Below the pieces are notes generated by a model. That model had not been told where the DNA came from. It saw only the letters and a program-made list of their open reading frames with translations, and made no database searches. Of a DNA stretch of 64,000 nucleotides, positions 21,916 to 32,545 are shown one piece after another (position 1 is the stretch's first letter; each line of letters opens with the position of its first letter). Source of the stretch: a virus; IMG/VR virus record IMGVR_UViG_3300044620_001904, positions 31,262 to 95,261 of that record; one strand, 5' to 3'. Made by a program: the position numbers and the translations under genes.

Positions 21916-22053
21916 CTAATTATCAAAATCATCTGAACGGAATTTTCCTTTTTTGTCCTGATTTTTTTTGTTTGACTTGTTTTTGTTGTGATTACCGTTT
22001 GAACTCTTAGATTTCGGCATATCACCTTTCTGATTACGATACGTTTTACCCAT
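21916..22053 (-). CDS. small basic peptide MGKTYRNQKGD...DDFDN (45 aa; not in ORF track)
   Basis: ATG abuts the stop of the upstream gene; translated by hand. Confidence 0.5.
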   Translation of the reverse strand: MGKTYRNQKGDMPKSKSSNGNHNKNKSNKKNQDKKGKFRSDDFDN

Positions 22054-22298
22054 TAGTATTTTGTAACTGAATAATTTCCACAAACAATTTGTTCATTATC
22101 AAATATATCATTAAAGAAAATACAACCACTTTCTTGTTTGATAATGTTTTTTGCCTGATAACACCTTCCTATTTCGTTTGAAGTTATTTCATAATAAGTC
22201 TTGTTTGAACTTATATTTGTATTAAAAATAAAATTCATCGCAAATATTAGAACAATTGAAACTATAACAAATATTGAGTTTTTTTTCAAACCGAGCAT
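22053..22298 (-). CDS. small membrane-anchored protein
   Basis: N-terminal hydrophobic helix. Confidence 0.5.
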   Translation of the reverse strand: MLGLKKNSIFVIVSIVLIFAMNFIFNTNISSNKTYYEITSNEIGRCYQAKNIIKQESGCIFFNDIFDNEQIVCGNYSVTKY

Positions 22299-22312
22299 TT
22301 TTTTACAAAAAT

Positions 22313-22549
22313 CTAAAACTTTACCAAAAAGTCAATATGTGCAAAACCTTTATTTGTATGAACTGTAATTTCATTTTCATCAATTCTAGGCTCAAAACTC
22401 AAAATTGTTGCAAAACCAGCTTCTTTATCTTCATGTCTTACAACTTCTCCTACGGTAAAAATATTACCATATGAATTTATAGCTGTGTTATTATCAACAG
22501 ATATGAAATTTTGTCTTTTTGATATATTTTCCATGTTAACCAACAACAT
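22313..22549 (-). CDS. hypothetical protein
   Basis: ORF in operon. Confidence 0.5.
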   Translation of the reverse strand: MLLVNMENISKRQNFISVDNNTAINSYGNIFTVGEVVRHEDKEAGFATILSFEPRIDENEITVHTNKGFAHIDFLVKF

Positions 22550-23204
22550 TTTTTAATTCATCAGTATGGTGATCAAACTCCATATCTGAAATGATATTAC
22601 GTTTAATCATAATCGGAATAATCTCTTCAATTAAATTATAAGGTCTAAATTCTGTGGAACCATCAATACCAACATCCATTTTGCGACCTTTACCAAATTT
22701 TTTGTGGTTTGGTAAATGAACATGCCCGTGAAGATGGATCACACCTTTATTTAAACCATTCCAAGATGAGAGGGGGTAGTGCATTAAAACAAATTTTTTA
22801 CCACCAACAGATAATTCAACATAATCATTTACGCTTTTAAATAATCCTTTACACCCACCTCTATTTCTTTCAATGTTATGATCGTGATTACCTAAAATCA
22901 AATGTATGTTTTTACAAACAATTCTATCCCAAAAATTACGAATGTTCTCAAAACCTCCAAAAGACCAATCACCAAGATGAAATAAAATATCATCTTGATT
23001 AACAAATTCATTAATATTATTGACAATAGATGCATTCATACTATCTATGGATTCAAAATCTCTAGTCTGATCAATAGGAATTGATCCATCGTTTAACCTC
23101 CAATCTGTAACTCCACGACAAATATTTTTGTGCCCATAATGAGTATCTGAGGTGATCCAAATATTTTGAGATGAACTTGATAGTTCTATTTTAATACTAC
23201 TCAT
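22536..23204 (-). CDS. calcineurin-like metallophosphoesterase
   Basis: SDTHYGH, HLGD, GNHD, HGHVH. Confidence 0.9.
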   Translation of the reverse strand: MSSIKIELSSSSQNIWITSDTHYGHKNICRGVTDWRLNDGSIPIDQTRDFESIDSMNASIVNNINEFVNQDDILFHLGDWSFGGFENIRNFWDRIVCKNIHLILGNHDHNIERNRGGCKGLFKSVNDYVELSVGGKKFVLMHYPLSSWNGLNKGVIHLHGHVHLPNHKKFGKGRKMDVGIDGSTEFRPYNLIEEIIPIMIKRNIISDMEFDHHTDELKNVVG

Positions 23205-23242
23205 AGATTACAAAGGTATAAAAAAATTTTAAAAAAACAAAA

Positions 23243-23650
23243 TCAAAATTGAAATTGTTCAAATGCTTTTAAGTATGATGAAATATTTTCAGCCCCTACC
23301 GGATTCATTGAATGGACGACAAATTTTGGTAATTTTAAACTATTATCTAAGCAATAATCAACCAACCATTTGGCACAATCTAAACCTGTTTTTTCTTTAA
23401 AAGATTTTGACATGTCATCATAATTTGTCAAATACAATGATTGATCATAATGTTCGTCAGCAAGATCGTGATCAAATGAAATTAAATAAGGTAATCCATT
23501 TGTTGATATGTAGTTAACAAATTCATCGTAGTTTTTAACCACAATCCATTCTTCTCGGGTATACATTGCAGAATCCTCGGTTCTTAACCTCATATATGAA
23601 ACGCAATGATCAGGATTTCTGAAATCGTCTAAAAATAAGTAAGTTTTCAT
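23243..23650 (-). CDS. cyclic-phosphate-processing receiver-like domain protein
   Basis: LFLDDFR..ISFDHDL..TGLDCAKWL..VHSMNPVG. Confidence 0.7.
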   Translation of the reverse strand: MKTYLFLDDFRNPDHCVSYMRLRTEDSAMYTREEWIVVKNYDEFVNYISTNGLPYLISFDHDLADEHYDQSLYLTNYDDMSKSFKEKTGLDCAKWLVDYCLDNSLKLPKFVVHSMNPVGAENISSYLKAFEQFQF

Positions 23651-23676
23651 ATTACAAAGATAGTAAAAAAATGATG

Positions 23677-23761
23677 CGGAGAACAGAGGAATCGAACCTC
23701 ACACAAAATTTGTGCGTCATTCTTAGCAGGAAGGCCCCATCGCCATCAGGGATTATTCTCC
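23677..23761 (-). tRNA. tRNA-Ser(GCT)
   Basis: cloverleaf with long variable arm, CT-GCT-AA loop. Confidence 0.85.
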
Positions 23762-23767
23762 GTATTG

Positions 23768-23840
23768 TTGTTTAGGAGGGAATCGAACCCCCACCTTAGC
23801 GTCCGTTGCGCTAAATTCTAATCCATTAAACTACTAAACA
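23768..23840 (-). tRNA. tRNA-Arg(ACG)
   Basis: TAGCG-CAACGGA-CGCTA arm (A at position 33). Confidence 0.75.
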
Positions 23841-24130
23841 ATAAATCCAACAATTTGGTTTTTTTCACTTTTATATTGTGTTAAAAGCATAAGTTCGGTA
23901 ACTTCATCTTTAGTGCAGTATCCTTGAACATCTTCTTGCCAACTTGTCCAAACTTCAAAAGTGGTTTCACCATCACCATAAAGACCAGTTCCTCCTCCAA
24001 CGACAGATATTGCATGGCCATTTGGAAATTCCATAACCGCATGAATGGCTCCCACATTAAAATAGTTACGATGCGGTTTGAAAACCAAATCATCAAATGT
24101 TTTTACTTTATATTTTTCAAAAAAATCCAT
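23834..24130 (-). CDS. hypothetical protein inside the tRNA array
   Basis: 98-aa ORF between tRNAs. Confidence 0.6.
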   Translation of the reverse strand: MDFFEKYKVKTFDDLVFKPHRNYFNVGAIHAVMEFPNGHAISVVGGGTGLYGDGETTFEVWTSWQEDVQGYCTKDEVTELMLLTQYKSEKNQIVGFIV

Positions 24131-24163
24131 AATATATTTTTTTAAATTGTTGGTATAATTTTG

Positions 24164-24246
24164 TGAGTAAGGTAGGATTCGAACCTACACGAATTTCTCC
24201 ACCGGCTTCTAAGGACGGCGCGTTCTACCAGTTTCGCCACTTACTC
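24164..24246 (-). tRNA. tRNA-Leu(TAG)
   Basis: CT-TAG-AA loop, variable arm, A73. Confidence 0.8.
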
Positions 24247-24254
24247 AATTTTTG

Positions 24255-24329
24255 GGTGTTGTATGGGATTTGAGCCCATGACCTTCTGAACCACAATCAG
24301 ACGTTCTCACCAACTGAACTAACAACACC
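24255..24329 (-). tRNA. tRNA-His(GTG)
   Basis: TT-GTG-GT loop; G-1 and C73. Confidence 0.85.
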
Positions 24330-24334
24330 ATATT

Positions 24335-24422
24335 TGGCGGAAAAGAGAGGTGTCGATCCCCACACCACGAAGGTGCCACTAGTTTTCAAGACTAGGTTTA
24401 GCGCCGGCTAAATTTCTCTTCC
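24335..24422 (-). tRNA. tRNA-Ser(TGA)
   Basis: CT-TGA-AA loop, long variable arm, encoded CCA. Confidence 0.85.
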
Positions 24423-24430
24423 ATTTGTTG

Positions 24431-24503
24431 TGGAACAGAAAAGAATCGAACTTTTATTGCTCGCTCTTCATGCGAGTGCCTTGACCAACTAGGCTACTGT
24501 TCC
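24431..24503 (-). tRNA. tRNA-Phe(GAA)
   Basis: CTCGC-ATGAAGA-GCGAG. Confidence 0.8.
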
Positions 24504-24535
24504 ATATATTTTACAAATATACAAAAAATATTTCG

Positions 24536-24608
24536 TACCGCCAACAAGAATCGAACTTGTAATTAAACCTTATGAGAGTTCCGTGATAAACCGTTTCACT
24601 ATGGCGGC
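24536..24608 (-). tRNA. tRNA(CAT), Met or Ile2
   Basis: CT-CAT-AA loop. Confidence 0.8.
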
Positions 24609-24614
24609 ATTTAG

Positions 24615-24686
24615 AGCACCATGAGAATTTTGAAATCTCGACTTCTAGTTTGGAAGACTAGCGCTCTGCCTCTGAGCTAATGATGC
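24615..24686 (-). tRNA. tRNA-Gly(TCC)
   Basis: CT-TCC-AA loop, U73. Confidence 0.85.
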
Positions 24687-24693
24687 TTTTATG

Positions 24694-24777
24694 TTACCGG
24701 GGTAGGGTTCGAACCTACACAGGGATTTCTCCCAACAGATCCAAAATCTGCTCGCTTGCCAATTTGCATACCCGGCA
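24694..24777 (-). tRNA. tRNA-Gln(TTG) with long variable arm
   Basis: GCAGA-TTTTGGA-TCTGT; extra arm GGGA-GAAA-TCCC. Confidence 0.7.
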
Positions 24778-24920
24778 ATTTTGATGAGTCACGGACTTGT
24801 GTACCGTATGTCCCCCTTTAAATTATTCACTAACCCAGGGTGTGGGGAAACTCATCATAATAACCCCCTTGATCGGATTAACGGACCGACTGCCATATCG
24901 GAAGTGGGGGTTAGACTCCG

Positions 24921-25007
24921 TAGTCCTGGTCGGATTCGAACCGACACGGGCTTCTCAGCCCAACAGATTTTAAGTCTGTCGCGTCCTACCAATTTCGCCA
25001 CAGGACC
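24921..25007 (-). tRNA. tRNA-Leu(TAA)
   Basis: CT-TAA-AA loop, long variable arm. Confidence 0.9.
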
Positions 25008-25209
25008 ATATAAAACACCCTAATTTATCCAACTTACAGGTGTTGCGGTTGTCCTCATTTCTGAGTTAGGAATAGTCATTTGTCCTTACGAGGTCGAGTT
25101 GACTTGCTCTGAAGTTATCCCCCTCCACTCCAATGTAGGTTCCCATACGGCGATCAAACCGTTTTTCATCGTATTGGGCGTACTATCCGTTGTCGTGTTT
25201 CGGAACGTG

Positions 25210-25760
25210 TAGTCAGGACAGGATTCGAACCTGTATGGGTTTTTGAGACATCACTTCCTCTCGGTGTTCCACCCAGTTTATTTCAACTTGCGTCTACCAA
25301 TTCCGCCACCTGACTATTCGTTATTTCATTTTTTGTACTTCTTCAATTAACTCAATAAACATTGATTTTGTTATATGTTCCTGCTTTACCCACATATAAA
25401 TTACCCCCATTCTTTCGTGGTAATCTTTTTTAACTTGTAATTTTTCAATCAAATCTTTTATCATAACCTCGTATTTTATTTTGTAGTCAGGACAGGATTC
25501 GAACCTGTAATGATATGCCCCGCACATATCTGGATGGTCTAGAATTAGTTGTATAATTCGGAATTCACCACAATGTTACCAATTACACCACCTGACTATT
25601 TGAGGATGAGAAGTCCTCTGTGTTGTAAGTTTTAGAACCAAAGGAACCGCACTCATCCATCCTTTCTCAAGGGAACAACAAATTAGTAGTCAGGATTGGA
25701 CTCGAACCTGTTTTTCCTCCTTCCCTTTGTCGGAAGTTGTGCTCCTTACACCACCTGACT
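25210..25760 (-). repeat. three tRNA-like shells (25210-25315, 25484-25597, 25687-25760) with identical AGTCAGG acceptor stems and unrelated central inserts
   Basis: AGTCAGGTGG..(variable)..ACAGGTTCGA.TCC..TCCTGACTA occurs three times. Confidence 0.75.
25321..25464 (-). CDS. small hypothetical protein MIKDLIEKLQ... (47 aa) between tRNA-like shells
   Basis: 3' part of the track ORF; the 5' extension overlaps a tRNA-like element. Confidence 0.5.
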   Translation of the reverse strand: MIKDLIEKLQVKKDYHERMGVIYMWVKQEHITKSMFIELIEEVQKMK

Positions 25761-25975
25761 ATTCACCCCACCTTGAGATTTGAGGTGAGTAGTTATTTCG
25801 GTTTTCTATTTCTTAAAAACCTGCGGGGCGTCCCCCATTAAAACAGCCAACACTACTGGGAGAGATTGTGTCAGTCCCTTTATCCCACGATGTCCCACTC
25901 TAGCCGTAGACATTCTGCTAGTCCATTGTTAAATGAGTCTTGGACAAAAGACTGCTGAGTATCTCTTACTCATTG

Positions 25976-26063
25976 TGGGTAGGGAGGGACTCGAACCCCC
26001 GATGTTGTGTCTAAAGACCTTTGATTTACAGTCAAAGCCGTTCGCCGCTACGGTAACCTACCC
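25976..26063 (-). tRNA. tRNA-Tyr(GTA)
   Basis: CT-GTA-AA loop, variable arm. Confidence 0.9.
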
Positions 26064-26169
26064 GACGATAAAATAGGAAAATAGAAGATGGGCGCGTGGA
26101 CATCTATTTTTATGATTAGCATTACTATAAACACCTCCACCAAAATGGTATTCCCTAATCAACCTATTG

Positions 26170-26243
26170 TACCCCCTCTAAGAATCGAACTTAGGACATA
26201 TTGCTTGTAAAACAATCACTCTTAACCACTGAGTTAAGGGGGT
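26170..26243 (-). tRNA. tRNA-Val(TAC)
   Basis: TT-TAC-AA loop. Confidence 0.85.
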
Positions 26244-26249
26244 GTATTG

Positions 26250-26322
26250 CGTACCTCCAAGGATTCGAACCCTGAACAAACGGGTTGGAACCGTTTATGA
26301 TAAACCATTTCACCAGAGATAC
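26250..26322 (-). tRNA. tRNA-Trp(CCA)
   Basis: AACGG-TTCCAAC-CCGTT, G73. Confidence 0.8.
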
Positions 26323-26328
26323 GTATTG

Positions 26329-26401
26329 AGAGCAGTGAGGGATTCAAACCCCCGTGTTTCTCCTTTGCAGGGAGTTGCCTAATCGCTCGAGCCAACTGCT
26401 C
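26329..26401 (-). tRNA. tRNA-Cys(GCA)
   Basis: CT-GCA-AA loop, U73. Confidence 0.85.
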
Positions 26402-26406
26402 TTATG

Positions 26407-26481
26407 TCTTCAGGGGCGGGCTCGAACCGCCGACCTCTTGGATATCAGCCAAGGATTCTAAACCAACTGAACTACCTGAAG
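26407..26481 (-). tRNA. tRNA-Ile(GAT)
   Basis: CT-GAT-AT loop. Confidence 0.85.
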
Positions 26482-26487
26482 ATTATG

Positions 26488-26561
26488 TAGTGAGGATGGG
26501 ACTTGAACCCATGACTGCATGTGTATAAGACATGTATTCTAACCAACTGAATTACCTCACT
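26488..26561 (-). tRNA. tRNA-Ile(TAT)
   Basis: CATGT-CTTATAC-ACATG. Confidence 0.8.
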
Positions 26562-26570
26562 ATAATTAAG

Positions 26571-26644
26571 TGATTCCGGTGGGATTCAAACCCACGTTTA
26601 CCATTTTAAAAGAATGGTGCCTACAATCACTCGGCCACGAAATC
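26571..26644 (-). tRNA. tRNA-Lys(TTT)
   Basis: CT-TTT-AA loop. Confidence 0.85.
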
Positions 26645-26742
26645 ATTTTTTATACCAACAATGTCAAAGAACCTTGTTCTAATCTTTCACAAAGGTAAAT
26701 CAAATTTTTTAATCCAACAAATCTATGTGAAAGATTTTTTTG

Positions 26743-26824
26743 AGGAAAGGGTGGGAATCGAACCCACGTTGAGAATTAACTCGCAGATTAACAGTCTGCT
26801 GCCTGGCCTCTAGGCTACCAATCC
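26743..26824 (-). tRNA. tRNA-Asn(GTT) with long variable arm
   Basis: GCAGA-CTGTTAA-TCTGC; two acceptor mismatches. Confidence 0.75.
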
Positions 26825-26840
26825 ATTTTATATTGTATTA

Positions 26841-27389
26841 CTAAGTGTTTTTTTTCAAAAAATTGTCCCTAAACATATCAACAATTCCAATAATTTCATT
26901 TTTGAATTTTGAATGTATATATAGATGATGTGTTGGACACAAAGGAATCAAATTTTCCGGTGAGTTATTTTTTTTATTACAATCATAATGGTGGATTGCC
27001 ACTATTTTAGATTCACCACATACCACGCATCGTTTTTGGTGATGTTCAAAACCTATTCTACGGTATCCATTTCTTTCTCTATTTTCAACAGAACCGACCC
27101 AATTAGGGTTATTAGGACCACTTCTGAAAAAACTATTTGAGCAAGAATAAGAACAAGTTGTTTTTTCATGTTTATGATTTGTAATAGTAACGAACACATT
27201 ACCACAAATTGGACATTTTTTTTCCAAGTAATCGTATTTAGTTTTTTTCTTTTTCAAATGTGAAATATCTACACTATGAAGTTCTATAAACTCAAAAAAT
27301 TTTTTTCTAGTTTTACCATTATCATAACCATAAATTGATTTTATTGCGTCAGTAATAGTTTGAGAATTTTTTATTATTTCTGTTTCCAT
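26841..27389 (-). CDS. HNH homing endonuclease inserted in the tRNA array
   Basis: CVVCG..IHHYD.N..NNSPENLIPLCPTHH; CPICG zinc motif. Confidence 0.85.
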   Translation of the reverse strand: METEIIKNSQTITDAIKSIYGYDNGKTRKKFFEFIELHSVDISHLKKKKTKYDYLEKKCPICGNVFVTITNHKHEKTTCSYSCSNSFFRSGPNNPNWVGSVENRERNGYRRIGFEHHQKRCVVCGESKIVAIHHYDCNKKNNSPENLIPLCPTHHLYIHSKFKNEIIGIVDMFRDNFLKKNT

Positions 27390-27451
27390 ACATATAAATA
27401 TGTTAGAAATCGTAAAAAACTAATTTGGTCAAACTTTTTCAATACGACAAG

Positions 27452-27524
27452 TAGAGTAGACAGGACTCGAACCTGCACGCACTTGCTCCCAAAGCAAGGG
27501 ACCTTCCAATTGGTCAACTACTCT
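27452..27524 (-). tRNA. tRNA-Pro(TGG)
   Basis: TT-TGG-GA loop. Confidence 0.85.
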
Positions 27525-27580
27525 ATATGAAAAACATAATTTTGTAATTACAACACTTAATAACCAATATTTCAAAGAAC

Positions 27581-27618
27581 AAAAAAAAACCCCGAACTTT
27601 TTACGGTTCAGGGTTTTT
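27581..27618 (-). terminator. attenuator terminator 1, followed by boxA-like GTTCTTTGA
   Basis: ACCCTGAAC-CGTAAAAA-GTTCGGGGT plus U-tract; the 5' arm (CTGAACC) can instead pair with GGTTCAG in the leader ORF. Confidence 0.8.
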
Positions 27619-27638
27619 ATATGATAATTTTAACTATA

Positions 27639-27743
27639 TCAACTTTTAACTACTGAACCAATGAATGTACGAAACATCCCAGGATACCAACAATTACCTT
27701 GTGGTTTCGAACTAATGACGTTATGTAAATTTATTGTTTTCAT
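27639..27743 (-). CDS. putative attenuator leader peptide 1, MKTINLHNVISSKPQGNCWYPGMFRTFIGSVVKS (34 aa)
   Basis: sits between promoter TTTG-N20-TACTTTTG (27795-27764) and the terminator; contains codons for every amino acid served by the downstream tRNA cluster. Confidence 0.75.
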   Translation of the reverse strand: MKTINLHNVISSKPQGNCWYPGMFRTFIGSVVKS

Positions 27744-28158
27744 AGTTTGTTATATAAGTATTACAAAAGTAGTAAAAATATCAATACAAGTCAAATATTT
27801 TTTTCACCACCTAAAATAAATTGTTGCTATTCCTATCGCAAATGTTAAGACTCTACGTTTTTCAGGATGATAAGGAGTTTTTTGATATGAAATACCAATA
27901 TCAAACCACCATTCGCCATCAAAATTGTTCCAAACAAATTCTGTTTTCATGTCTTATCGTTTAATTTTAAAACATTAAAGTTCTAACCAAGTATCCAATT
28001 AATTCATTAAGTAATGCAAAAAAACCAACTATGGATCCAATTCCAAATACCGACATCAATATAAATTGTGTCATAATTGCAAAAGTTGATGGTTCCCTTT
28101 TGAATTGGTTTTTCTTGTAAAATTTTGAAAAAAAAGATGTTTGCATATGGTTTTATTT

Positions 28159-28371
28159 TTAGATTTCGCTCAAATATGATTTCAGGTTAGCAAGTTCAAT
28201 TTTTAATCTTACGATTTCATCGTTTTGCAATTTTATATCTTCCAGTCTTTCCTTTAAAACCTCAAAAGAATAATCGATAATTTGTTGTTCAATTTCGGTC
28301 AAATCTTCTTTTTTTACAAGAATTTTCTCCAAAATAAACTCACAATATTTGTCTTTTTGAGATTTAAACAT
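28159..28371 (-). CDS. hypothetical protein
   Basis: 70-aa ORF with TATCTTTG promoter upstream. Confidence 0.5.
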   Translation of the reverse strand: MFKSQKDKYCEFILEKILVKKEDLTEIEQQIIDYSFEVLKERLEDIKLQNDEIVRLKIELANLKSYLSEI

Positions 28372-28424
28372 TTTGTTTTTTGTTGGGCAAAGATATAACT
28401 TTTATCTATCTCTGCCAAATTTTT

Positions 28425-28658
28425 TTAAAAAATCGTGTGATCCCCAAAGTTATCGTCCCAAGGACAAGGGATGGACTTTCTATCATCATCACGAGTTGGT
28501 TGGATGATATCAGAAATTTCAGATAATATCTGTAAAGCATCCGTTTGAGCATTATCAGATTGGAAGATAGTTTCAGCATAAGGATATTTTTTGAAATAAT
28601 CATCAAGAACATTGATAACTTCAGATTTTTTTTCGGGTGTCCAATTTATTTTATACAT
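28425..28658 (-). CDS. hypothetical protein
   Basis: 77-aa ORF. Confidence 0.5.
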   Translation of the reverse strand: MYKINWTPEKKSEVINVLDDYFKKYPYAETIFQSDNAQTDALQILSEISDIIQPTRDDDRKSIPCPWDDNFGDHTIF

Positions 28659-28672
28659 ATTCTATTTTTGTG

Positions 28673-28758
28673 AGCCAAGGGCCGGATTCGAACCGGCGTG
28701 TGAGTAAACTCATCCTCATTACAAGTGAGGTGCAATCGACCATCTATGCGACCTAGGC
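28673..28758 (-). tRNA. tRNA-Thr(TGT) with long variable arm
   Basis: CT-TGT-AA loop; extra arm TGAGT-TT-ACTCA. Confidence 0.85.
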
Positions 28759-28765
28759 AAATTGT

Positions 28766-28841
28766 TGGTGACCCTGGCACGATTCGAACGTGCGACTGAT
28801 TGCTTAGAAGGCAATTACTCTATCCTCTGAGTTACAGGGCC
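28766..28841 (-). tRNA. tRNA-Arg(TCT)
   Basis: CT-TCT-AA loop, encoded CCA. Confidence 0.9.
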
Positions 28842-28847
28842 TTATAA

Positions 28848-29024
28848 TTATATTTTCTTCACTTCATATCTATGACCACTGTCAGAATTTATCTCCATTA
28901 ATTTTCTTGTGTTTTCTGCGTCTTCAAAAGTTTCAAACTCTAATACTTCCTCATGAGTGTCCAATATAATTACCGGCATCTCTACATTTCTGTCATTTTT
29001 TACAAATTTTACAATTACATACAT
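28848..29024 (-). CDS. small hypothetical protein MYVIVKFVKND... (58 aa; not in ORF track)
   Basis: fills the gap between tRNA-Asp and tRNA-Arg. Confidence 0.55.
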   Translation of the reverse strand: MYVIVKFVKNDRNVEMPVIILDTHEEVLEFETFEDAENTRKLMEINSDSGHRYEVKKI

Positions 29025-29041
29025 AATAATTAGTTTTTTTT

Positions 29042-29116
29042 TGGCGGTCTATAAGGGAATCGAACCCTTACCATATCATAGACAGTGATATATCCTTGCC
29101 GTTAGACGAATAGACC
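29042..29116 (-). tRNA. tRNA-Asp(GTC)
   Basis: CT-GTC-TA loop, G73, encoded CCA. Confidence 0.9.
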
Positions 29117-29176
29117 AATTTTGTTTTACAAAGGTAGTATAAACTTTTCAATTATACAACACATTTATTTTTTTTG

Positions 29177-29252
29177 TGGAGAAGATGGGAATCGAACCCA
29201 CCACAAAAACATTGCAAGTGTTTCTCGCCAAAGCCTTGGTACATGCTCCCCC
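29177..29252 (-). tRNA. tRNA-Ala(TGC)
   Basis: CT-TGC-AA loop, G3.U70. Confidence 0.85.
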
Positions 29253-29263
29253 AAATTATTTTG

Positions 29264-29349
29264 TAGTGCCGATGGGATTCGAACCCACGATTATCCTTTC
29301 GGATTCCAGATTGAAAGTCTGGTAGCCTAAACCACTAGCCGACGGCACC
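29264..29349 (-). tRNA. tRNA-Glu(TTC) with long variable arm
   Basis: CT-TTC-AA loop; extra arm ATCC-GAAA-GGAT. Confidence 0.85.
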
Positions 29350-29388
29350 ATTTATGATACAAAATTACAAAATATATTTCAAAGAACC

Positions 29389-29422
29389 AAAAATAAAAAA
29401 CCCACCTTTTTGGGGTGGGTTT
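29389..29422 (-). terminator. attenuator terminator 2, followed by boxA-like GTTCTTTGA
   Basis: AAACCCACC-CCAAAAA-GGTGGGTTT plus U-tract; CACCCC can instead pair with GGGGTG in the leader ORF. Confidence 0.8.
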
Positions 29423-29445
29423 CAATATTTTAGAAAACTACAATA

Positions 29446-29523
29446 TTATACCACACCCCGTAGAGTAAGTTCTGCTTCCGTTCTATCGGCAGTGGTGATA
29501 TATATGTAGTTCAAATTTTTCAT
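29446..29523 (-). CDS. putative attenuator leader peptide 2, MKNLNYIYITTADRTEAELTLRGVV (25 aa)
   Basis: follows promoter TATCTTTG (29535-29528); core TTADRTEAE matches the downstream Glu/Ala/Asp/Arg/Thr tRNAs. Confidence 0.8.
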   Translation of the reverse strand: MKNLNYIYITTADRTEAELTLRGVV

Positions 29524-29569
29524 AACACAAAGATACAAAGAATTTTTATAAAATCAATACCCTTATCCT

Positions 29570-30091
29570 TTATTTTCTTAATTTAGGTTTAGATTTCATT
29601 TTATCATATATCCTAACGAAATAATAAGGATCTTCCATCACATAACAAAATTCATTCCTTGTTGTCGCGTTAAGGATTTTAACTTCTTTGATCGGATATT
29701 TTGACAATAAATCCATATCTTTGTCGTTATATCTAAACCACATATCAATTCTACATGAAATACCAGGTCTAATATTCCACAAAGCAACGGAATCATTTTC
29801 TAAATAGAATGTAACACGACTTATTCTACTGCAAAAATGATCGTCTTTGTAGGTTAACCTAAATTCGTGTAAATATTGATATTTTTTATCCATATCAACA
29901 TTTGTTATTACCGGTTGGATTTCAAATAACGAATCCGAATGGATATACGGCTTTGGTTGAAGAGGATCGGTCTCGGATCTTTCTTCGTACTTAGCGATGT
30001 GCTCACAGTGAGGACATGGTTTGTCTGTTTCAAATGGTGTGAAAGCCATAAACACCAATAAACAGATTGCGATAATTATAGAAGTTTTCAT
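29570..30091 (-). CDS. secreted hypothetical protein
   Basis: signal peptide; CPHC motif. Confidence 0.55.
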   Translation of the reverse strand: MKTSIIIAICLLVFMAFTPFETDKPCPHCEHIAKYEERSETDPLQPKPYIHSDSLFEIQPVITNVDMDKKYQYLHEFRLTYKDDHFCSRISRVTFYLENDSVALWNIRPGISCRIDMWFRYNDKDMDLLSKYPIKEVKILNATTRNEFCYVMEDPYYFVRIYDKMKSKPKLRK

Positions 30092-30276
30092 ATCTATAAA
30101 TATTTGATTATTTTTAATATTTACATTTTTAAAAAAATATTTATTCTTCTAAATTTTTAATTTCTTTACATTAAAATTACATTAATTTAAAACTAAAAAA
30201 AAGTTATTTGATATTTATTATAGTGACTTTAATTTTTTTTTATTGAAAATTTTATTATATTTGTATCTAATTTGTA

Positions 30277-30789
30277 ATGATTATTAACATGGAAAGAGTT
30301 TTAGTTTTAAATTCTGATTATAGTCCTTTGAACGTAACGACTGTCATTCGTGGTTTTAACTTAGTTAATAAAGGAAAGGCCGAGATATTAAAATCGGGCG
30401 AAAAACCGATAAGTGCTGGTTCATTATCATTTGCTCGCCCTTTGATAATAAGACTATTGGTTTATGTTAAATACAGGGTTAAAAACTTAAAAGTTAATAG
30501 GGCTAGAATTTATAAACGTGATGGTCATAAATGTGTATATTGTGGGGCGAATAAAAATCTTACAATAGACCACGTTTTACCAAAATCTCGTGGTGGAACA
30601 AATAGATGGACTAATTTGGTTACATGCTGCGGTACTTGTAATAGAAAAAAAGGTGATAGAACTCCATATGAAGCAAATATGACTTTAAGTGTAAAACCTT
30701 ATGAACCATCATTGTTTTCTGATGTATTTCATAATCACATAAGTGATCTGTGGGATGAATTCAAACAAACGATGGGGTTGAATTATTGA
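30277..30789 (+). CDS. HNH endonuclease family protein
   Basis: VLVLN.DY.PL..RDGHKCVYCG..TIDHVLPKSRGG..WTNLVTCC..CNRKK. Confidence 0.9.
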   Translation: MIINMERVLVLNSDYSPLNVTTVIRGFNLVNKGKAEILKSGEKPISAGSLSFARPLIIRLLVYVKYRVKNLKVNRARIYKRDGHKCVYCGANKNLTIDHVLPKSRGGTNRWTNLVTCCGTCNRKKGDRTPYEANMTLSVKPYEPSLFSDVFHNHISDLWDEFKQTMGLNY

Positions 30790-30904
30790 TTCACAAATAT
30801 ACCAAAAACAAAAGAGAGTCCGAAAACTCTCTTTTGTTAGATTTGGAACACCCCCTTTTTTTAGATGTTTATACTAAACAGGACTCTCGTCCCGAAAAGT
30901 CAAT

Positions 30905-32545
30905 TTACTTACTTAAAGCCTTTGATTTCATTTCTTTAGCTTTATTTTCCATTTTATCTTTAATACCTCCTAATATTGAACATACACTTCCTGATATTGA
31001 TGATTGTATGCTTTTCATAAATGATTGCTCATAAAGTAAATCTGTTAAAGAGTTTCTAACAGCATCAGGAACGATACCACTTGCAACATACTTATCACCT
31101 AAAGAACCAATAATCGATTCTACGATGCTTTTTGAAAGTAACTCGCTTACATAATTGCAATCTGTAAATAGTTTTGGTATATCAGAAAAAGATTGAATGT
31201 TACCTAAAGATGTAATGAATAATCTTCCAATAGCGCTTTTTGGATTTAAACCTAGTTTCGATAATAGAGTTTTAACCGCAAATTCAACCAAAGTACCTCT
31301 TAAAGTACCCATTAGATTTTTTTTAACACCTGATCCACCAAATATACCACTCAATAAATTAACAAAAGACTCCATCTCACTTAATATTACCTTATTATCA
31401 AAACCAACTTCACGTAACTTTATTGTCTCTACTAAAAAATCTAAAAATGAAATTTCAATATTATTATGTAATTTTGAAGATTCTATAATTAAATTAAAAC
31501 GGTTTTTAATTATTGATTGCTCAACCAAAAATGATTTTTTATTTTCTTTCATTTCCAAAAGATTTTTCTTCACGGTTTTTGATAAATTTGATTCTTGCAA
31601 TGAATATTTTTTATTTGAATCTTTACTCAAATTATTTATAATTTCTAAATTTTTTAATGTACCAAAAGAAAATTTGTGAATTTTATCGCATCTTTGAATC
31701 AATTGTTTGGCCGTCAATAACATTGCAGAATTTCCAACCGGATAATCGTTACTAATCGCATTTGCATAATTATTAATTAATTTGCGACAATATGATTTCT
31801 GTGGATTTGCCAGATTTTTCCGAAAATTATCCTTCTCAGTATTAAGATAATCATTCCATTGATTAGAATTTCCTGATTCACTGAAATCTATTTTTTGTAC
31901 TAAACAAAAATCTGTAGTAAATACTGATGGATATTTTTGTTTTAGATTAACAATAGGACCCGCAAAATCATCAGTGTCTTGAGTTTTACAATCTATTACA
32001 GTATAACCGGCACCTGTAAATTTGGCGATAATAGGATCTTGTTCAGAAGAAATTGGTGTCAATTCTGTTTTTTTTAAATAAAGAAAATCTTTTCCTGGTT
32101 GTGGAAATGCGTCAGGGTTTCCATATTCAGGATGTGAATTAAGGTCTATTTTTTCATATTTTCCTGCTCTGATATCCACCTCTGACACATTTTCAGGACT
32201 TACGATACCCTGATTTCTTTTCATCACCGCGGCAATATGTTGGTTTTGTTTTTCTTTTAAAGGTGTTATTTTATTTTGATCGGTAACATCAGGAGTGGTT
32301 AAAGCTTCGCAAGACCATCTTTTTTTTACTTTTGTTACTGCGTTTATAACTATTCCATCATCAAAAAACAATATACTTTCGTTTTTTCCATTCTTACCCG
32401 ATATAACCAATTTACCTGATTTAGTTTTTTTTGGTTGTCTTCCAGTATCTTTGGTAAACCATTTGTAGTTATCGAAACATTTTTTTTGGTCGGCAACCAC
32501 TAAATCTATTTCTTTTTGTGACTGCTCATTAATATTTTTTTTCAT
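30905..32545 (-). CDS. hypothetical protein
   Basis: 546-aa ORF. Confidence 0.6.
   Translation of the reverse strand: MKKNINEQSQKEIDLVVADQKKCFDNYKWFTKDTGRQPKKTKSGKLVISGKNGKNESILFFDDGIVINAVTKVKKRWSCEALTTPDVTDQNKITPLKEKQNQHIAAVMKRNQGIVSPENVSEVDIRAGKYEKIDLNSHPEYGNPDAFPQPGKDFLYLKKTELTPISSEQDPIIAKFTGAGYTVIDCKTQDTDDFAGPIVNLKQKYPSVFTTDFCLVQKIDFSESGNSNQWNDYLNTEKDNFRKNLANPQKSYCRKLINNYANAISNDYPVGNSAMLLTAKQLIQRCDKIHKFSFGTLKNLEIINNLSKDSNKKYSLQESNLSKTVKKNLLEMKENKKSFLVEQSIIKNRFNLIIESSKLHNNIEISFLDFLVETIKLREVGFDNKVILSEMESFVNLLSGIFGGSGVKKNLMGTLRGTLVEFAVKTLLSKLGLNPKSAIGRLFITSLGNIQSFSDIPKLFTDCNYVSELLSKSIVESIIGSLGDKYVASGIVPDAVRNSLTDLLYEQSFMKSIQSSISGSVCSILGGIKDKMENKAKEMKSKALSK

Follow-up and report, generated by a model that had tools for sequence, protein, structure and literature searches.

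Candidate leader-peptide attenuators upstream of tRNA gene blocks in a large phage from freshwater metagenomes

The known leader-peptide attenuators of enterobacteria include trpL, hisL, pheL and leuL, as well as the multivalent thrL and ilvL. T-box riboswitches have no open reading frame (ORF): they bind uncharged transfer RNA (tRNA) via a specifier codon and the T-box sequence, and they control synthetase genes or amino-acid genes. In bacteria, the control of tRNA genes is exerted at promoters. For phages, both the reason for carrying tRNA genes and the control of these genes have been debated for decades. We know of no description of a feedback loop that senses how fast ribosomes decode the codons served by a block of tRNAs. 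Classical amino-acid-operon attenuators are treated in PMC1183508 and PMC3082878, and the main proposals for phage tRNAs are codon compensation and evasion of tRNA-targeting defences (for example, PMC10264068, PMC11464382 and PMC11555353). Here we describe a candidate for such a feedback loop: a short leader ORF followed by a terminator (leader unit 1) in front of tRNA genes in a 64,000-nucleotide (nt) stretch of viral DNA, which we call the window.

The window covers bases 31262-95261 of a 95-kb IMG/VR virus record (IMGVR_UViG_3300044620_001904), and its G+C content is about 30%. CheckV puts the completeness of the record at about 32%, which makes it part of the genome of a large phage. DNA from this phage is present in lake and freshwater metagenome runs from 24 studies. 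(All of these runs are of DNA and none are of RNA.) ARAGORN identifies 24 tRNA genes in the record, and these all fall in the window, on its minus strand, from 23676 to 29349; every amino acid is served by at least one. A first-pass annotation of the window had described a promoter, a 25-codon ORF (29523-29446), a terminator and five tRNA genes, in that order on the minus strand, and our inspection of the sequence and our tRNA and terminator calls place all of them at the same positions. It had presented the leader as preceding five tRNAs. That is correct for the first block of the array, but the full array has 24 tRNAs, and a second unit bounds the first block downstream. We think it likely that leader 1 is a ribosome-mediated transcription attenuator, which would tie transcription of block 1 to the speed at which Glu, Ala, Asp, Arg (AGR) and Thr codons are decoded. 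The components of unit 1 and of block 1 are:

29528-29557, minus strand: promoter P1, as read from the sequence, with TTG (29557-29555), a 19-nt spacer, TATCTTTG (29535-29528), and 4 nt to the ATG
29446-29523, minus strand: leader ORF 1, with 25 codons and TAA
29470-29496, minus strand: putative sensor codons 10-18, ACC ACT GCC GAT AGA ACG GAA GCA GAA, encoding T T A D R T E A E
29487-29512, minus strand: region 1, the 5' arm of the long leader hairpin (1:2) in minimum-free-energy folds
29436-29460, minus strand: region 2, the 3' arm of the leader hairpin, including the last codons and the stop; 29459-29450 can pair with the 5' arm of the terminator (antiterminator)
29412-29423, minus strand: region 3, the 5' arm of the terminator, which can pair with region 2 or region 4
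29389-29406, minus strand: region 4, the 3' arm of the terminator, and the run of T
29374-29387, minus strand: the 14-mer GTTCTTTGAAATAT, after terminator 1
29360-29391, minus strand: promoter P2, with TTTG (at the end of the run of T), N20 and TAATTTTG, ending 10 nt before tRNA-Glu
28672-29349, minus strand: tRNA block 1, with Glu, Ala, a promoter (29151-29129), Asp, a 58-amino-acid ORF, Arg(TCT) and Thr
29349-29263, minus strand: tRNA-Glu(TTC)
29249-29176, minus strand: tRNA-Ala(TGC)
29116-29042, minus strand: tRNA-Asp(GTC)
28841-28766, minus strand: tRNA-Arg(TCT)
28758-28672, minus strand: tRNA-Thr(TGT)

Every one of codons 10-18 of leader 1 encodes one of the five amino acids of block 1, and AGA, GAA and GCA are the exact complements of encoded anticodons. 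The first-pass annotation had noticed both features, and the run is unlikely to arise by chance. Given the phage's own protein composition, a run of at least nine residues from {T,A,D,R,E} within 24 residues has P = 7.8e-5, and when the residues of the leader 1 peptide itself are shuffled, a run of nine is reached in 0.05% of shuffles. It had also been noted that E-A and A-D-R-T follow the order of the tRNA genes. The corresponding neighbour pairs (E-A, A-D, D-R and R-T) are indeed present in leader 1.

Leader ORF 1 is probably carried on a leaderless mRNA. The gap between P1 and the ATG seems too short for a leadered mRNA, but the same arrangement, TAnnTTTG-N4-ATG, is found at the start of six long ORFs of this phage, so it appears to be the phage's way of starting leaderless genes. 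(In the whole record, two more long ORFs start 5-6 nt after a TAnnTTTG box; examples of gene starts are at 23650 and 23204 in the window.) These starts point to frequent leaderless mRNAs and to a host with Bacteroidota-type transcription machinery. Our view of the host as Bacteroidota-type is derived from promoter motifs alone. A scan of the sequence for sigma-70-type promoters was uninformative, as it gave the same number of sites as in shuffled sequence. P1 itself has one single-nucleotide polymorphism in its spacer, which is seen in a nearly identical contig (L002) and in contigs from lake metagenomes.

We then considered how leader 1 could fold. In the free RNA, regions 1 and 2 are predicted to pair into a long hairpin with the ORF inside it, and regions 3 and 4 to form the terminator downstream. 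Together, leader 1 and its terminator fold with an energy of -42 kcal/mol (z = -3.97 relative to shuffles). The terminator lies 22 nt after the stop codon and has a stem (29423-29397) of 10 pairs, a 7-nt loop and a run of T that extends to 29389. The first-pass annotation had pointed to complementarity between GGGGTG in the last codons and CACCCC in the terminator. This complementarity is real and longer than had been described: it spans 9 base pairs with one bulge, GGGGUG(U)GGU:ACCCACCCC. The predicted duplex has an energy of -17.1 kcal/mol, as compared to -7.7 kcal/mol in shuffles (z = -4.3).

Folding the leader with and without the region covered by a ribosome had been proposed as a check on the first-pass annotation. 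We modelled the ribosome as a mask, by deleting the RNA from its 5' end to a point 15 nt beyond the A site and folding the rest at equilibrium. The predicted probability of the terminator is 1.0 when no ribosome is present. It falls below 0.3 for A-site positions at codons 6-17 and exceeds 0.7 from codon 18 to the stop (codons 18-26). That is, the terminator is lost during stalls within the ORF, and it forms on free RNA and at the stop codon. Eight of the nine matched codons lie within the antitermination window of this model. Across the folds, the duplex and the mask model, leader 1 has the three mutually exclusive pairings 1:2, 2:3 and 3:4, and stalling favours 2:3. In these models, leader 1 behaves according to the logic of classical leader-peptide attenuation.

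If so, the loop would work as follows. Transcription from P1 would start a leaderless transcript. A ribosome that moves quickly through codons 10-18 and reaches the stop would cover region 2, so that the terminator (3:4) forms and transcription ends near 29389. If no ribosome loads, region 1 would pair with region 2, and the terminator would form as well. If the charged tRNAs are scarce, the ribosome would linger on the Thr, Ala, Asp, Arg and Glu codons and cover region 1. Regions 2 and 3 would then pair, no terminator would form, and RNA polymerase would continue into the tRNA genes. The outcome would be negative feedback on the tRNA supply: more of the block 1 tRNAs would probably be made when ribosomes read the leader codons slowly. 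We infer from the sequence that the ORF is translated, that stalling drives the RNA switch, and what might be sensed; candidate conditions are codon demand late in infection, loss of host tRNAs, and tRNA-cleaving defences. The first-pass annotation had mentioned anticodon nucleases as a trigger, which is speculation.

A second unit, with the same architecture, lies 1.8 kb downstream of unit 1 and heads the other 19 tRNAs. Its components are:

27764-27795, minus strand: promoter of unit 2, TTTG-N20-TACTTTTG, 20 nt before the ATG
27639-27743, minus strand: leader ORF 2, with 34 codons, inside a long hairpin
27567-27618, minus strand: terminator 2 (27618-27585), its run of T, and the second copy of the 14-mer (27580-27567)
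23676-27524, minus strand: tRNA block 2, with 19 tRNAs (Pro to Ser), tRNA-like elements and small ORFs

Leader 2 contains all 16 of the amino acids of block 2, and it contains no Ala, Asp or Glu (joint P = 6.5e-6). When only the block-specific amino acids are considered, the two leaders differ in the expected direction (Fisher p = 0.0028). Even the arginine codons correspond: the single Arg codon in leader 2 is CGT, and block 2 has tRNA-Arg(ACG), while the Arg codon within the run in leader 1 is AGA, and block 1 has tRNA-Arg(TCT). Leader 2 would act in the same way for the other 19 tRNAs, so that the two leaders would divide the amino-acid alphabet between them. There is no TAnnTTTG box between terminator 2 and tRNA-Pro. 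Furthermore, the contig L002 diverges from the window directly after the GTTCTTT of unit 2, and there a different tRNA-Pro begins just 16 nt past the terminator stem. Lake contigs have the same kind of variant of unit 2. In these variants, tRNA-Pro would be reachable only by reading through the terminator.

Similar units are found in other viruses. A scan of viral contigs for the run of T with the 14-mer yielded 33 loci, and a further scan with the bare 14-mer added more. At about 25 of the 33 loci, the motif is preceded by a GC-rich hairpin and followed by a tRNA 15-57 nt later. We also ran a detector that is independent of the 14-mer on all of the fetched loci. (It requires a strong hairpin and a run of T, with a tRNA gene no more than 1 kb further along that strand.) In all, the 14-mer led to about 24 such units, in unrelated viral contigs. 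Among 24 distinct strong terminators that lie at most 100 nt before a tRNA, 22 are preceded by an ORF of 15-50 codons that begins with ATG and ends 10-60 nt before the stem. In dinucleotide shuffles of the upstream sequence, such an ORF (of 20-50 codons) is present in 14%. Complementarity to the terminator, of the kind that could form an antiterminator, is enriched as well: it has a mean z of -2.0 over the 24 units, with p < 0.05 for 11 of them, and it lies in the last 10 or so codons. In 12 units (about half), only 8-31 nt separate the stem from the first tRNA. This leaves no room for a promoter, so these tRNAs would be reachable only by read-through.

Scans of viral contigs with the upstream 173-amino-acid protein and with a 44-mer of tRNA-Glu gave no match. 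Among cultured phages (blastn against a collection of 50,697 phage records), we found no similar leader, but only hits to tRNAs or short hits to terminators.

If the leaders are sensors, then their composition should follow the tRNAs downstream. Several short fragments of leaders, shown with the tRNAs that follow, illustrate this:

LLHTLLLDRQGLLRRL: tRNAs Leu, Arg, Leu
LSLHSSLSYLLSYH: tRNAs Tyr, Ser, Tyr, His, His, Ser, Leu, Leu, Leu
NTNTLPTTPNGDGG: tRNAs Pro, Asn, Asp, Gly, Thr
QPQPQRCESPLC: tRNAs Cys, Gln, Gln, Pro
IINNKPNNI: tRNAs Pro, Asn, Ile
AASWAPSYEPSSAYES: tRNAs Tyr, Pro, Ser, Trp, Glu, Glu, Ala

We have several pieces of evidence that this match is general. First, we compared each leader to its own downstream tRNA set across 28 non-redundant units. 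(These include four units that are probably false, which we kept deliberately.) The leaders have 397 residues that are in their own tRNA set, as compared to 243±16 when leaders and tRNA sets are re-paired. The maximum over 200,000 permutations was 318, so none reached 397. Relative to the pooled composition of the leaders, the match has z = 11.9. The first-pass annotation had proposed a survey of phage tRNA clusters for such a correlation, and leader codons do co-vary with tRNA content. Second, in all four of the phages that have two leaders, each leader is enriched in the amino acids that are unique to its own block (p = 0.0028 for the window, and 0.014, 7e-6 and 6e-6 for the others). Third, leaders choose between the codon families of Leu, Arg and Ser (AGR or CGN, TTR or CTN) in line with the isoacceptor family of the tRNA genes that they precede (26/9 vs. 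7/23 in a pooled 2x2 table, p = 4.4e-5). Apart from this evidence, adjacent leader residues tend to occur in the same order as the tRNA genes downstream: across 24 units, there are 53 pairs in the forward order and 30 in the reverse order, while shuffles give 30.6±4.9, although the count is partly inflated by a conserved C-W-Y in one type of leader.

The matched residues are concentrated in the middle of the ORFs, where they make up 60% of residues, as compared to 34% in the head (the first four codons) and 30% in the tail (the last eight). This fits with a head that is constrained by initiation and a tail that is constrained by region 2. Codon choice within the four-codon boxes also differs. 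Over 24 units from these AT-rich phages, 39 of 84 matched codons end in G or C, as compared to 20 of 86 unmatched codons (p = 0.002). Rare codons that are read slowly may be preferred as sensors.

The leaders fall into several sequence types. Leader 1 belongs to type B and is homologous to the leaders of four other loci (L012, L013, L014 and L028). An alignment of type B shows conservation at the start, in region 2, in the spacer and in the terminator, but the central codons are completely different. The insertions and deletions inside the ORF are of 3, 6 and 3 nt, and those outside it are of 1 and 2 nt. That the ones within the ORF are all multiples of three implies a coding constraint. The two sides of the antiterminator pairing change together across type B: GGGGUG/CACCCC, GGAGAGGG/CCCUCUCC and GGAGGUGG/CCAUCUCC. 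In type A leaders, the nucleotides of region 2 are conserved but the frame in which they are read differs, and the ORF stays open. (We also ran RNAalifold on a MAFFT alignment of ten type A leaders. This recovered only the terminator; the alignment was too gappy for the leader hairpin.)

Could the leader instead be a small RNA or a small-protein gene? In that case, the transcript of about 135 nt or the 25-amino-acid peptide would be the product, and its codons would match the tRNAs because its translation depends on those nearby tRNAs (as a timer or reporter), with no control over their transcription. A stable hairpin with a terminator does resemble many small RNAs, and type A leaders are conserved at the nucleotide level. 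Also, released attenuator RNAs can act in trans (rnTrpL, PMC6614838). Nevertheless, we consider this alternative to be unlikely. Aside from the matched composition, the peptide sequence is not conserved between units. The conservation of region 2 across differing reading frames, with the ORF kept open, is not what this alternative predicts. And regulated read-through is called for both by the complementarity to the terminator's 5' arm and by the tRNAs that lie right next to terminators. A product that acts in trans is compatible with attenuation, and the two can coexist.

The first-pass annotation had described trp/his-type attenuation as established. The comparative sequence evidence does support that type of mechanism, but "established" was an overstatement for a conclusion drawn from sequence. 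It is the parts of the units, the alternative pairings, the match between leaders and tRNA sets, and the recurrence and co-variation across phages that can be read directly in these genomes.

Several observations weigh against attenuation at leader 1. First, there is a canonical promoter (P2) between terminator 1 and tRNA-Glu, and another before tRNA-Asp, so read-through is not required there. The first-pass annotation had cautioned that TAnnTTTG motifs after the terminator might give basal expression. We agree: P2 belongs to a repeated class and is probably a working promoter. (P2 can also be read as TTGAAA-N9-TAnnTTTG, and this class also precedes tRNA-Asp, tRNA-Lys and a phosphoesterase gene, for four occurrences in the region.) If P2 works, then read-through from P1 adds to the expression of block 1, and of tRNA-Glu and tRNA-Ala in particular, rather than gating it. 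P1 and P2 may differ in timing, though this is a guess.

Second, in the three closest relatives with a syntenic site (L004-L006), that site has no leader and no terminator. In these contigs, the upstream 173-amino-acid gene is 52-55% identical, the only tRNAs are Glu, Arg and Met, and the promoter of tRNA-Glu directly follows the upstream gene. This implies that a leader at this position is specific to the lineage with the expanded set of tRNAs. (Two contigs, L002 and L003, are nearly identical to the window and are uninformative about leader 1, and contigs from lake metagenomes have no variation inside it.)

Together, P2 and these relatives raise the possibility of an ordinary terminator followed by an ordinary promoter. 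The hairpin at 29423-29397 would insulate the tRNAs from upstream transcription, P2 would drive them, and the ORF and its composition would be incidental. P2 is well formed, and the 2 of 24 terminators that lack a leader ORF are just that: plain terminators of protein genes, followed by a promoter. But an insulator does not explain why P1 would exist to drive only about 135 nt, why 22 of 24 terminators have such an ORF, or why leaders match the tRNA sets of their own units. Nor does it account for the enriched antiterminator pairing or for the tRNAs that begin 8-31 nt after the stem. We therefore regard a mere insulator as very unlikely.

Third, in most of the other units, folding with the ribosome mask at equilibrium keeps the terminator at every position of the ribosome. 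The switch is clear only for leader 1 and a few other units, so we do not use this model as support for the family as a whole. If most of the other units do have a switch, then it must be kinetic. Because we infer the direction of control from the sequence, it is also conceivable that the switch is reversed, so that full translation would promote read-through and give positive feedback. Or no ribosome might be involved, if the leader binds a tRNA or a protein (a T-box-like or protein-mediated antiterminator). But across units, the stop codon lies 19-37 nt before the stem, so a terminating ribosome would cover region 2 and not the terminator, and the model of leader 1 predicts termination at the stop and antitermination during stalls. 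Also, a leader that binds its ligand directly would not need an open frame, insertions and deletions in multiples of three, or a match at the level of amino acids, and we found no match to the T-box or to any other Rfam family. A reversed or ribosome-free switch seems most improbable.

Fourth, not all of the codons fit. Of the nine putative sensor codons of leader 1, three (ACC, ACT and GCC) do not pair with the encoded U34 anticodons by strict Watson-Crick or G:U rules. Across units, a preference for codons ending in A or G in the four-codon boxes that are served by U34 tRNAs is absent (p = 0.67). Fifth, some of the units share ancestry, and the permutation p-values therefore treat them as more independent than they are. 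The swaps between two leaders of the same phage are free of this problem. Finally, attenuation assumes that transcription and translation are coupled on leaderless mRNAs in the presumed Bacteroidota host.

The 14-mer GTTCTTTGAAATAT has its own distribution. In the window, there are only two exact copies, each directly after a leader terminator. We rejected it as a genome-wide promoter motif, as near matches in the window are at the level expected by chance. The 14-mer, usually followed by TGGT, is conserved before tRNAs in many unrelated viral contigs (L008-L039, L124 and others), and it is also found between tRNAs in L103, L128 and L132. At many sites, a TTTG-N18-20-TAnnTTTG promoter has the 14-mer as its spacer. 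The 14-mer is retained even where there is no -7 box and the tRNA starts 1-43 nt later. In L002 and in the lake contigs, the junction between the terminator and the 14-mer is a recombination breakpoint. (One lake contig joins 29391 to 27582, but its shorter side is only 33 letters long, so we do not interpret it.)

The tRNA array has other unusual features. Rfam adds three tRNA-like hits beyond the 24 tRNAs from ARAGORN (24339-24422, 25210-25315 and 25484-25597, all on the minus strand). One matches the tRNA-Sec model with 44 bits, which is below the threshold, and the other two are tRNA hits of 106 and 114 nt. These may be intron-bearing or otherwise unusual tRNAs. In bacteria, a long extra region is normally present only in the tRNAs for Leu, Ser and Tyr. 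In the window, the tRNAs for Glu (29263-29349), Thr (28672-28758), Gln (24693-24777) and Asn (26742-26824) are 83-87 nt long and have a long extra region; in the relatives L004-L006, tRNA-Glu has the normal length of 73 nt.

An HNH endonuclease ORF (26841-27389, minus strand; PHROG 1271, E = 4e-13) lies between tRNA-Pro and tRNA-Asn. At this site in L002, tRNA-Pro adjoins tRNA-Asn. A second HNH gene is at 30277-30789 on the plus strand. In L005, there is an insertion in place of most of tRNA-Arg. The small ORF within block 1 (28848-29024, minus strand) encodes 58 amino acids and has counterparts of up to 60 amino acids in L004 (10688-10870) and L005 (10686-10868). These are 74% identical, as compared to about 52% for the flanking gene. 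To judge from this conservation, the ORF appears to encode a small protein that travels with the tRNAs.

We lean, by a modest degree, towards a broader proposal. Phages of Bacteroidota-type hosts would carry modular "checklist" attenuators, in which a leader lists the codons that are served by its block and the tRNA supply adjusts itself. The same leaders would also sense the loss of tRNAs, whether from tRNA-cleaving defences or from host shut-off, and would induce replacement tRNAs only when they are needed. Leaders and blocks would be exchanged at the junction between the terminator and the 14-mer and then re-matched by selection. If the feedback loop itself is real, the leaders give a direct and testable readout of which tRNAs limit a phage during infection, and they could be used as compact, reprogrammable sensors of tRNA availability. 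It would also be the first case in which attenuation acts on the decoder and not on the amino acid. The composition of the leaders could be used to annotate tRNA expression units in uncultured phages.

How do these units compare to known systems? We did not find an Rfam family for the element, or any sequence similarity to the classical enterobacterial leaders. Leader 1 has no match in Rfam, and the best hit for unit 2 is to Thr_leader, with 25.9 bits (as compared to a threshold of 55) and essentially on the terminator. No T-box was found at E ≤ 1 in 22000-31000. A full-text literature search found classical attenuators and phage tRNAs with counter-defence roles, but no leader peptide or attenuator before phage tRNA genes.

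Like T-box riboswitches, leader 1 would couple the state of specific tRNAs to the choice between a terminator and an antiterminator in a 5' leader, but the signal here would be an open reading frame. The stalling leaders of ermC and cat are similar in that a ribosome stalled on a short upstream ORF remodels the RNA downstream. In those cases a drug acts on the ribosome, and the remodelling mostly frees a ribosome-binding site; here, the target would be an intrinsic terminator, and the stall would reflect scarcity of the cognate tRNA. The PeSL promoter/stem-loop cassettes of T4-type phages recur between cassettes of small genes and mark recombination breakpoints, much as the junction of the terminator and the 14-mer does in L002 and in the lake variants. 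PeSLs are not known to carry a leader ORF or a codon match; they could explain the shuffling of cassettes but not sensing.

The closest resemblance is to trpL- and hisL-type attenuators. Both have a short ORF rich in regulatory codons, an intrinsic terminator, and a region 2 that can pair with region 1 or region 3, and in both the position of the stop codon means that region 2 would be covered by a terminating ribosome. As in thrL and ilvL, one leader would sense several amino acids. But the classical attenuators regulate operons for biosynthesis or transport, and here the regulated genes would be phage tRNA genes, so the loop would act on the decoder itself and not on the amino acid. Also unlike the classical attenuators, a single leader can include as many as 16 amino acids, and leader 1 is probably leaderless, with a Bacteroidota-type promoter. 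The mechanism that we propose, ribosome-mediated attenuation, is well known; what would be new is the phage tRNA target, the feedback on the decoder, and the range of up to 16 amino acids in one leader.

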